A stretch of 64,000 bases of DNA from Eledone cirrhosa (GCA_964016885.1 OZ024752.1:29016001-29080000), one strand, 5' to 3'; shown: positions 10,701 to 13,700, numbered from the stretch's first letter. Translations and numbers: made by a program. Notes: generated from the letters alone by a model not told the origin.

Positions 10701-13700
10701 AAATTAACTGATGGTTCTAAATGGAAAAAGTAAAAACTTTGGTATTAATTCAAGCCTTTTCATTACTTTTTTCTTGGTTTGACTGATCCAGAAACAATTG
10801 GAAATTACTGTTAAGAGAGGTTGTATAAAAACAATTACAACAAATCATTTTTCTTCAGAAATATTTGTAAGCTTAAAATGTCAGCAATTGTAGTGCATTG
10901 GTATTTGACAACCATGTTCATAAAAACAAATTATTTAAATTGGAGCTAGTCATTTGTTAAATGTATCACTCTGATGAGAGCTTTCAATTTGAGCATGCTG
11001 ATTTGGATATAAAATTCCTGATATTTTTAATGGGCTGTGTGATAAATGTTATTTGCGCCTACTAATAACAATGTAGTAGTCACTTAGATGAGTGTGTTAA
11101 AGTATGGTTTCAATTATTTTCCATTAGCTGGCCCGTTATGGCTATTCATGGTGATAAGTCACAACCAGAAAGAGACTGGGTGCTAAGTGGTGAGTAATTC
11201 TGCTTTCAATTTTAACTTTGAAGTCAATTTTTCATTTATGCAGCATTTATTCTCTTAAATTTGGAGTTTACTACCCCCTTTTTTTCTTTTTGTTCTTTTT
11301 TTTCCCCTCTATAGAATTCAGAACAGGACGCATACCAATTATGATTGCTACTGATGTTGCATCTAGAGGCTTAGGTTTGTATCAGAATGAAACTAGGTTG
11401 ACAAATGTTTTATTTAAATATATTTACTACATATTTCTAAATGTTAAATTTGTAATAAGATTGGCATTATAACTTTAATTTCAAACTCTTCTCAGAGTCT
11501 CATTAAACTTAAGAATAATTTCAGTTAAAAGTTAAATTTAATTTGAATTTATAAGCGTTCTTCTTTAAAAGAGTAAATATGAAATGATTGCATTGGTTAT
11601 AGTACATAAATTGTAATGTTTGAGTGCTTGTGTATACAAGTGTGTATGAATGGTAAACAACTGCTTTGGTTGTTAACTCTTCTGCTTTATGTCGCAGTAA
11701 TAAGTTCTAAGTCTCTTTTGGCAGCGGAACATAGAAAGTTACTGATGCAGGCTGGACCGGCATGACTACTCTCAAGAGCTGAGGGGAGGGTGCAGAAATT
11801 TTCCTCTTCAGTTGTTGACACCCAGAAAGTAATATATTTGATGTTTCTTAGTGCTGAGTTCCCCCGACCTGGCGTGAGGAATTCAGGTGGTGATATTGGA
11901 GAACAAGTTCCAGTTTCAAGACTTGACCTGCACATGCAGCAGGACAGTTAAAAATGGCACTGGCTTTCCTTTCTTTCAACTTCATCTTATTCTTGCTTCA
12001 CCCCCTCCTTTTTTTTTCTTTCTTTTCTTTTTGACCAGTTTTCTCGGTGAAAATATTAGATGTCTTTTCACTTAAATTGACATTTTTTTTGCCCCTGTTT
12101 TCACAAATTCAATAAAAAGCTAGTGACAATAATATAGTATGCATACTTACACTGACCTGGATCTAGGATTTTCTCGCAGAAATCTGGTAAGATGTGTTAC
12201 TGAGTGTTGCTATTCTGTCTGGAAACACCTATGATTGAAACTGCTGGGTATTGGTATAAACTATTGCTGTTTATTTTTCAGTGAGTAAAAAACAATGAAG
12301 TGTTAAAGGAAGGTGAATGTTTGTGAAAATGCAACATTTGTTTGTGTGTGTTGTGTTAAATCAAGGTTTGAGCCCTGTGTTAACCTTTCTGGTGTGTTTA
12401 GCTTTTCCTAGTTTTACTAGTTGATGTACATTATATTTATCACTTAAAAATCACATATTAACCCCTTGTAATTTTTAAGTTAAATATAGTATTTTGATTT
12501 TAAAGGCTATCAGAACAATGTTTTTAAACTTGTTGAAGCACCAATAGATTGCTCATAAAGAGGGCAAATTAATTCTCCAATAAATTACAAAAAATGACCT
12601 TGAAATTTTAATGGTTTATGGTCTATTTTGTAACAAATTATTGAGAGTTCTTCCATATGTCTTTAACTTTTTTTTTTTTTTCTTCTTCATAATACAGTTG
12701 GTCGCTACTTGATAAATGTTAATTTTGCTTGTATTGTTAAGTAATATTGCCTCCAATTTTAGATTTATTGCTAGATTGTCATCTGATAAATTTTATAAAA
12801 GTTATATATTAATCATTGATAGTATGTTTTGGAATTTACTCACAGGACTTTACCATAAATCCTTGTCAGTGGTGTTTCCCGATTCATAGCAACACAGAAT
12901 GTCATGTTTTTGTTTGGATAATGCAGCCACCTCCTCACTATGAATTTCCAGGATTATCTTCTCAGCATTGCAGCCCGTGACTCACCGGATGTTAAAGTTC
13001 GGTTTCTCGGACTCCTACTCCTATTTCTCCCATGTCAACTGTCCTGATGGAGTCATGTCGGAAACCTGCCAGCAAAGAGGGAATGCTTACTCTTAAAACT
13101 GCATATGGGACTTTGCTTCCTGCATGCTGAGCTGACAGCTGAAGGGTATCTTGTTAGACTTACATAAACATGTACTCGGATATGTGACCGACCCAAATAA
13201 ATGTCTAGCCTCTAGCAGGCTAGCCTTCATCACACACGGCCAGCAGCTACTGTCTCTTCACTGACAGTCTAATAGTCACCACACAGTTATTGTGTTAATG
13301 AAACCGTTTTCTTGGTTTTACTGTAAACAAAGCATTCAAGAAGAGAGAGCAAAGTGCCAATACCAGCCAGATGCATGCTCCCTCTCACAATTGGTTACTA
13401 CTAACCTGGACGTTCAGGTGAATTTTTAAGTTGGGGACAGGAAGTAAACACCCTGGGGTTGCAGGTAAGATGGCAGCAATTAAGGTAAGTTAACAACTTT
13501 TCTTACCCAGGGTAAGCTCTTGGCCCTAACTAAAATTTGTTCAAAGTTAAAATTGTCAATCAAGCTTGTGGGAGTGTGCATTCTTGTTGGTTTCATAGTA
13601 TTTCATGAATAGAGATAACTGGTTCTTCTGATTTCAGTTGAAAGTAAATAAATCTTATTCCTACTAATATTCTGTCTTTCTTCTTGTTATGGGGATTTTC

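Follow-up and report, generated by a model that had tools for sequence, protein, structure and literature searches.

A cluster of donor-like sites in a predicted RNA fold as a candidate splicing decoy in intron 11 of octopus DDX5

The window, a stretch of 64,000 nucleotides from Eledone cirrhosa, contains a gene that on protein similarity is octopus DDX5. Mapping the protein named Octopus bimaculoides DDX5 onto the window (tblastn, query P0002) gave 13 exons; the features of intron 11 and its flanking exons described below lie on the + strand. The translation of exon 12 (13729–13965, the C-terminal part of the helicase with HRIGRT, defined by exon mapping and RNA contigs) shares 99% identity with this Octopus bimaculoides protein and 96% with cuttlefish DDX5. 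Among solved structures its best match is DDX17 (5.7e-32) and its second best is yeast Dbp2. Protein similarity places the gene with the DDX5/DDX17/Dbp2 helicases over other DEAD-box helicases. A first-pass annotation of this DNA had assigned the locus to DDX5/17 and the intron of interest to intron 11, and both identities are confirmed by the protein matches and the exon mapping.

Exon 11 (11315–11374) ends in the real donor TAG/GTTTGT (the slash marks the exon-intron junction), as placed by the tblastn alignment of P0002 and the boundary listing, with a spliced joint in all four sequencing runs examined. Intron 11 was delimited by exon mapping and spliced joints; it is 2,354 nt long (11375–13728) and lies directly before the DV(E/D)D that starts exon 12. 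This boundary is identical in an insect homolog (L032), the only whole-exon match of high identity (72%) among 80 loci in 1/64 of the protein scan. The real acceptor of the intron (13703–13728) is pyrimidine-poor, scoring 11 of 20; ten of the other 11 acceptors of the gene score 12–20 and one scores 10. RNA that keeps intron 11 runs into a stop about 32 codons in, upstream of the exon that codes for HRIGRT. At the exon 11/12 boundary, 49 of 116 homologous proteins depart from the spliced sequence. The end of the intron (13713–13728), read in frame, gives C-N-N-F-T-D, and nine of those 49 proteins, all nine closest to fish DDX5, give C-N-T-F-T-D; at protein level, the weak acceptor sequence may have been kept from octopus to fish.

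The intron stretch 13300–13760 has a single match in the genome. Rfam gave no match in intron 11 at E values up to 1, and its sole hit over 4000–17000 was a GT microsatellite, far below cut-off. Partial copies of the gene do occur. Genome contig C2:310770957-310885808 (L117-L119) carries five clustered exon 12 matches with 92–96% amino-acid identity. In the three of these five that were examined, exons 11, 12 and 13 follow one another with no introns between them, which marks these three as processed copies of DDX5 mRNA; the examined copies are 5'-truncated, and a stop lies within the match in two of the five. Within the gene itself, intron 4 carries at 8160–8237 a degenerate fragment that duplicates the 3' end of exon 4 together with its donor; the fragment has an internal deletion and no longer has the GT.

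Twenty-four sequencing runs matched the locus, none of them on record as RNA. The four examined came from four studies and three organisms: X22 from organism C, which is near-identical to the window, X1 and X24 from organism A, and X12 from organism B. Because spliced joints were present in all four, we treated these runs as RNA-derived. Joints across intron 11 and across intron 12 were found in every run. The last kilobase of intron 11 was likewise covered by contigs in every run, and the contigs of X22, X1 and X24 continue to the end of the intron. The retention of intron 11 expected in the first-pass annotation was thus recovered, with intron sequence beside the spliced form in the contigs of all four runs. 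In X22, word depth was 517 and 697 for the intron 11 contigs, 418 for the spliced joint, 17 for intron 12 and 4.8 for intron 9; depth in contigs is flat and an unreliable measure, so we read these figures qualitatively only. The X22 pieces of intron 11 extend only 28–29 letters into the exons and thus fall short of the 31 letters required for a bridge. Introns 9 and 12 may be too divergent in the other organisms, so missing cover there was not taken as evidence. Overall, the contigs provide qualitative evidence for substantial retention of intron 11.

None of the six joints listed uses an internal donor or acceptor, in assembled contigs from which rare forms are dropped; the six are the ordinary introns 9, 11 and 12 plus three alignment breaks in organism A. 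In X22 one unbranched contig spans 12035–13756. Because rare forms drop out of contigs, the lack of such joints counts against a poison exon in abundant use; a decoy is still compatible with it. Two further irregularities were seen in the contigs. Depth is higher 3' of about 12035–12125 in X22 and X24, and X12 has no cover upstream, a pattern that 3' bias could explain. In run X1 a contig breaks at 13487/13516, exactly over the palindrome CTTACC-CAG-GGTAAG, and the break is absent in X24, from the same organism. None of the splice joints that we constructed by hand fits this break, which is likely a variant or an artefact.

The feature that sets this intron apart is a group of four donor-like GTs: D1 at 13418 (CAG/GTGAAT), D2 at 13465 (CAG/GTAAGA; site 13462–13472), D3 at 13485 (AAG/GTAAGT; 13482–13492) and D4 at 13512 (AGG/GTAAGC; 13509–13519). 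They lie 20–47 nt apart and 217–311 nt upstream of the pyrimidine-poor true acceptor. The first-pass annotation had located all four correctly, together with TCTTACC (13501–13507), CCCTGGG (13451) and CCCAGGG (13506). Its statement that most of the four are closer to consensus than the real donor holds for three of them, with 7, 8, 8 and 6 matches to the 9-base donor consensus compared with 6. GT sites were scored by the energy of their pairing, in a fixed register, with the 11 bases at the 5' end of the U1 encoded in this genome. By this measure the four sites occupy ranks 1–4 among the 154 GT sites of intron 11, at −11.0 (D2, the strongest), −10.6 (D3), −8.9 (D4) and −8.4 kcal/mol (D1); the real donor pairs at −7.8 kcal/mol. 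The real exon 11 donor is not unusually weak, as six of the 11 other donors of the gene pair more weakly with U1.

Several comparisons bear on whether such a grouping could arise by chance. When GT sites of intron 11 were drawn at random 400,000 times, 173 sets of four were confined to 94 nt or less and 676 sets of three to 47 nt or less; the span and thresholds were taken from the cluster itself after the data had been seen, so this rarity is somewhat overstated. The other 11 introns of the gene (9,505 nt) hold just two sites as strong, and the cluster is the only one of its kind in the window on either strand. Across 400 kb elsewhere in the genome (40 stretches of 10 kb, both strands) we found two clusters, both GGGT-rich. 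Genome-wide, an exact triple-donor pattern matched 7,856 times, versus 3,078 for a reversed control; almost all of the 100 matches listed are tandem repeats, which make the pattern common and leave it without a usable background. These data support a non-random donor cluster. The multiple competing internal donors that characterize decoy exons are present here in sequence, as putative U1-binding sites.

The cluster is also predicted to fold. The folding energy of 13395–13530 is −46.7 kcal/mol (z −3.2), with none of 200 shuffles as low. The core (13429–13531) has a z of −4.0, a value reached by one of 1,000 shuffles, and among 1,055 windows over seven introns of DDX5 its energy is the lowest; three other intron windows have folding z-scores of −4.0 to −5.0. 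One window with a z of −5.0 lies at 14406–14525, in intron 12. A coarse 110-nt scan gave a z of −1.0 over the element, with windows that cut the outer stem. The core is predicted to form a three-way junction with outer stems 13429–36/13524–31 and 13438–42/13518–22, an inner stem 13450–57/13506–13 and two hairpins, one presenting D2 in a 10-nt loop and the other pairing D3 with 13495–13505. The fold is unchanged in five of five sequence contexts, at 37 and 18 °C, and recurs when the whole intron is folded. Just upstream, a small hairpin at 13404–13419 (pair probability about 0.99) is predicted to pair the AG at 13416–17 and the start of D1. A long-range helix between 13112–22 and 13438–48, suggested by the repeat list, was rejected at a cost of 18 kcal/mol.

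This prediction agrees in part with the structure that had been sketched before. CCCTGGG and CCCAGGG, described as able to close the region, do pair in the prediction, as the inner stem of a stable fold. The idea that small stems loop out the donors one by one stands for D2; D3 and D4 are instead predicted to be paired, D4 being buried in the inner stem. The cost of opening each site is 5.3 kcal/mol for D1, 4.5 for D2, 6.7 for D3 and 14.2 for D4. Because the 12 real donors cost 1.6–7.8 kcal/mol, D1 to D3 fall within the range of real donors and only D4 is unusually buried.

The surrounding sequence is strongly conserved. A block running from the 3' part of intron 11 into exon 12 (12705–13755, 1,050 letters) differs in X24 at 34 letters, with a further 23 gap letters and similar results in X1 and X12, and about 3% of bases in the last kilobase of the intron differ between octopus-level relatives. 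Its intronic part (12705–13728) is better kept than 12150–12376 (34/1,024 versus 26/227 bases differing; p 3e-6, X24), and is not significantly better kept than exons 9–10 (34/1,024 versus 10/173; p 0.12). Several parts of intron 11 are unaligned at 85% in X24. Among 12 of the 30 indels none falls between 13329 and 13555, and the individual differences listed (40 of 94) all lie before 12705–13755; the piece 13487–13756 of run X1 has seven other letters. Like the decoy-bearing introns, then, intron 11 is a large retained intron with conserved internal sequence, as seen between relatives that are close, at octopus level. Since the block extends over about 1 kb, the conservation is not specific to the donor cluster. 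The first-pass expectation of cross-species conservation is upheld for the surrounding kilobase in octopus-level relatives, with a signal of the cluster's own not separated from that of the block. Further afield, the exact donor pattern had no match in metagenome contigs, and L032, the one insect homolog, lacks GGTRAG sites throughout the 1,766 nt preceding exon 12.

Other conserved or splice-site-like stretches of the region were recorded alongside. Exon 12 itself shows no other letters over 237 in X1, versus 10/173 in exons 9–10 (p 1.5e-4) and 24/442 in exon 13 (p 3.5e-5), an excess of identity that points to constraint on the RNA sequence and not on the protein alone. A second conserved block of intron 11 (11654–11934; at least four differences in about 280 nt, organism A) is a further candidate decoy, with acceptor-like and donor-like sites at 11697 and 11887, respectively. 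Of the acceptor-like sites in the intron the best, at 12038, is followed by donor-like sites at 12187, 12281 and 12313 (ranks 5, 7 and 8); the site at 12187 has GGTAAGATG in common with D2.

Immediately before the cluster lie candidate elements that the first-pass annotation overlooked. TACTAAC at 13399–13405, one of three + strand copies in the window, is a perfect match to the branch-point consensus and thus a candidate branch point. Three AGs (13416–17, 13429–30 and 13439–40) follow it at 12–35 nt. All three are predicted to be paired, the latter two within the 5' arm of the predicted three-way junction, and with 12, 10 and 8 pyrimidines of 20 they are weak as candidate acceptors. A candidate acceptor with a long pyrimidine tract (12672–12697; 16/20, the second best of the intron) opens the conserved block, and its YAG/TTGG recurs in a loose end of run X12. 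When the candidate acceptors are combined with the donors, 20 of 21 combinations lead to a premature stop, and 13441–13464 alone stays in frame.

We propose that the cluster and its predicted fold act together as a splicing decoy, gated by structure, that promotes the retention of intron 11 and would let the helicase damp its own production, a reading whose chances we judge to be evenly balanced. Taking its parts separately, the cluster probably has a real role in splicing, whether its action is that of a retention-type decoy could go either way, and gating by DDX5's own unwinding is put forward tentatively, by analogy. The predicted three-way junction would show D2 in a loop and hide D3 and D4. 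U1 would load on the exposed donor, and on the hidden donors once the helices open. U1 at the cluster would compete with the real donor, which lies 2 kb upstream, and splicing would not be completed; with excision stalled, intron 11 would stay in the RNA, which would give no full helicase. By analogy, more DDX5 would open the short helices, exposing more decoy donors and the weak acceptors and raising retention, a negative feedback. Helicase sensing enters this scheme solely because of the precedents of yeast DBP2 and plant DRH1. DDX5 has been proposed to unwind U1 from donors (cited in the part of bioRxiv 10.64898/2026.01.23.701338 available to us), and removal of U1 from the decoys by the helicase would reverse the direction of the feedback. 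Autoregulation of human DDX5, according to the accessible sections of PMC3763533, needs ATP binding and not helicase activity, and acts via NMD.

The main rival is a switch of the U1-70K type, with the cluster defining a poison exon or an alternative acceptor. U1 would then activate 13417, 13430, 13440 or 12697, leading to a stop and NMD, and retention would be a by-product. The candidate branch point ahead of three predicted-paired AGs and the premature stops in nearly every acceptor-donor combination both fit this explanation. It has precedents as well, since in U1-70K three clustered donors activate an acceptor that precedes them (PMC3798272, in the text available) and human DDX17 has a poison exon (PMC12894984, in an intron that the available text leaves unnamed). 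Against it, the six listed joints include none of this kind, X22 passes through the region as a single unbranched contig, and the three near acceptors are poor in pyrimidines; we consider it unlikely, if the foremost competitor. Just as unlikely, in our estimation, is that the cluster is a bystander, a set of donor look-alikes that arose by chance in a kilobase kept for some other purpose such as protein binding, nuclear retention signals or other decoys, with weak intron ends causing the retention. The extent of conservation over 1 kb and in the second block near 11654–11934, the further donor- and acceptor-like pairs within intron 11 and the pyrimidine-poor true acceptor would all suit such an origin, as would statistics picked after the cluster had been seen and comparable folding z-scores elsewhere. 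However, the best four of 154 sites are confined to 95 nt that coincide with the gene's most stable intron window, which argues against a bystander, as does the scarcity of equally strong sites in the other 11 introns.

Two more explanations concern U1 itself, and both appear far less probable. In the version put forward in the first-pass annotation, TCTTACC mimics U1 and toggles between donors, forming a multi-state switch reset by DDX5. As letters, TCTTACC is indeed complementary to the GGTAAG sites over 6–7 bases, and its pairing with D3 is the best fold for a nascent chain, though only for one ending at 13508. In the full element, however, TCTTACC is predicted to pair with 13481–85 and 13456–57, leaving the U1-like register unused. 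The U1-like registers lie above the best fold by 8.6 (D2), 4.7 (D3) and 11.5 kcal/mol (D4), with probabilities of 6e-7, 4e-4 and 8e-9, so no register exceeds 4e-4. Given this cost of 4.7–11.5 kcal/mol, the toggle is not favoured and we reject it as an equilibrium state; moreover, both registers hide D3, so a slip between them would change little. We regard this version as very improbable. Least probable of all is a role of the cluster mainly in keeping the retained transcript full length. U1 protects transcripts from premature cleavage, and intron 11 contains AATAAA at 12111, 12579, 13196 and 13647, so U1 bound at the cluster could block cleavage at intronic poly(A) signals. Yet AATAAA is common in AT-rich DNA, and the contigs of X22, X1 and X24 reach the end of the intron with no RNA end seen, though contigs cannot show ends.

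A retention-promoting decoy, our preferred reading, would resemble regulation already described in this gene family. In position, length and inefficient splicing, octopus intron 11 agrees with the conserved DBP2/DDX5 regulatory intron. We take its position to be that of the yeast and human regulatory intron (from passages of PMC4695336), and the 1.2-kb intron retained in human DDX5 is presumably intron 11. Splicing of the position-conserved DBP2/DDX5 intron is inefficient, and a yeast mutant with a dead helicase is relieved of the retention; autoregulation through the yeast DBP2 intron was reported in 1995 (both in passages of PMC4695336, citing Barta and Iggo). For the retained human DDX5 intron, the table in the portion of PMC4737145 available gives 0.11–0.26. 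As far as these sources go, the octopus intron shares with its yeast and human counterparts its length, poor splicing and helicase family. Fission yeast differs from our proposal in that its DBP2 intron, as described in the passages available, uses Mmi1-dependent decay.

Closer parallels to the cluster come from other genes. Decoy exons are known in large retained introns of SF3B1 (intron 4), OGT, ARGLU1 and DDX39B, and Parra et al. consider multiple competing sites likely to be key to the human decoy exons, whose junctions are rare or undetected in normal cells (PMC6097662, PMC7373989, both in part). On the features given there, the octopus element is alike in lying in a retained intron of more than 1 kb, in an RNA-processing gene, with a conserved internal block and several competing donors; its own junctions are unseen among the six joints listed from contigs, which drop rare forms. 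The two differ in evidence and in form. Human decoy exons have been documented by junctions after NMD block and by minigene activity, whereas the octopus element is known from sequence and contigs. The sections available on these human genes describe no enclosing fold, whereas the octopus donors are packed in a predicted three-way junction. Exon 7a of U1-70K (SNRNP70) likewise has three close cryptic donors after a candidate acceptor and a non-productive outcome (PMC3798272, in part). It senses U1C via the U1 particle, however, and its acceptor is used; the octopus cluster lies in a helicase gene and its acceptor is a candidate only.

In plants, a hairpin that covers an alternative splice site lets DRH1 shift its own splicing to non-coding forms, a result backed by mutants and their rescue (bioRxiv 10.64898/2026.01.23.701338, in the part available). 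This DEAD motif of DRH1/RH46 is, on the same source, the nearest likeness in kind: the gene is the closest plant DDX5 homolog, a splice site is concealed by structure within a long intron, and a helicase sensor is proposed. Opening of the plant motif gives non-coding forms, retention included. It is a single hairpin of 19–20 bp over an alternative acceptor, found in land plants and supported, in the portion available, by covariation and mutant rescue. The octopus element has a predicted branched fold of 2–8 bp helices and several donors, so the likeness is in working only. We therefore rejected the idea that the octopus element is itself a plant DEAD motif, from which it differs in fold and in the kind of site. 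It may work like a decoy exon, and may also work like the plant sensor.

The principle is not new: published cases are the decoy exons, the U1-70K cluster and the DEAD sensor of plants. In the literature we searched, which took in few subscription papers, no such cis-element or donor cluster was found for any animal DDX5 intron. Regulation of the DBP2/DDX5 intron has long been known, and the octopus sequence supplies a good, compact candidate for a cis-element behind it. With four defined sites and one predicted fold in 100 bases, this cassette lends itself directly to tests by point and compensatory mutants. If the decoy reading is true, it would extend decoy-driven retention, described in human, to a mollusc. 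A bolder generalization, which we hold to be rather doubtful, is that the ancient DBP2/DDX5 intron serves in animals as a helicase gauge built from decoy donors, in which the folded cassette would free U1-binding sites in proportion to unwinding by DDX5, and the helicase would thereby set the retention of its own intron. Such a gauge, if real, would join the decoy-exon and structure-sensor models, and animals would have in it their own counterpart of the plant DEAD hairpin, separately evolved and acting on donors.
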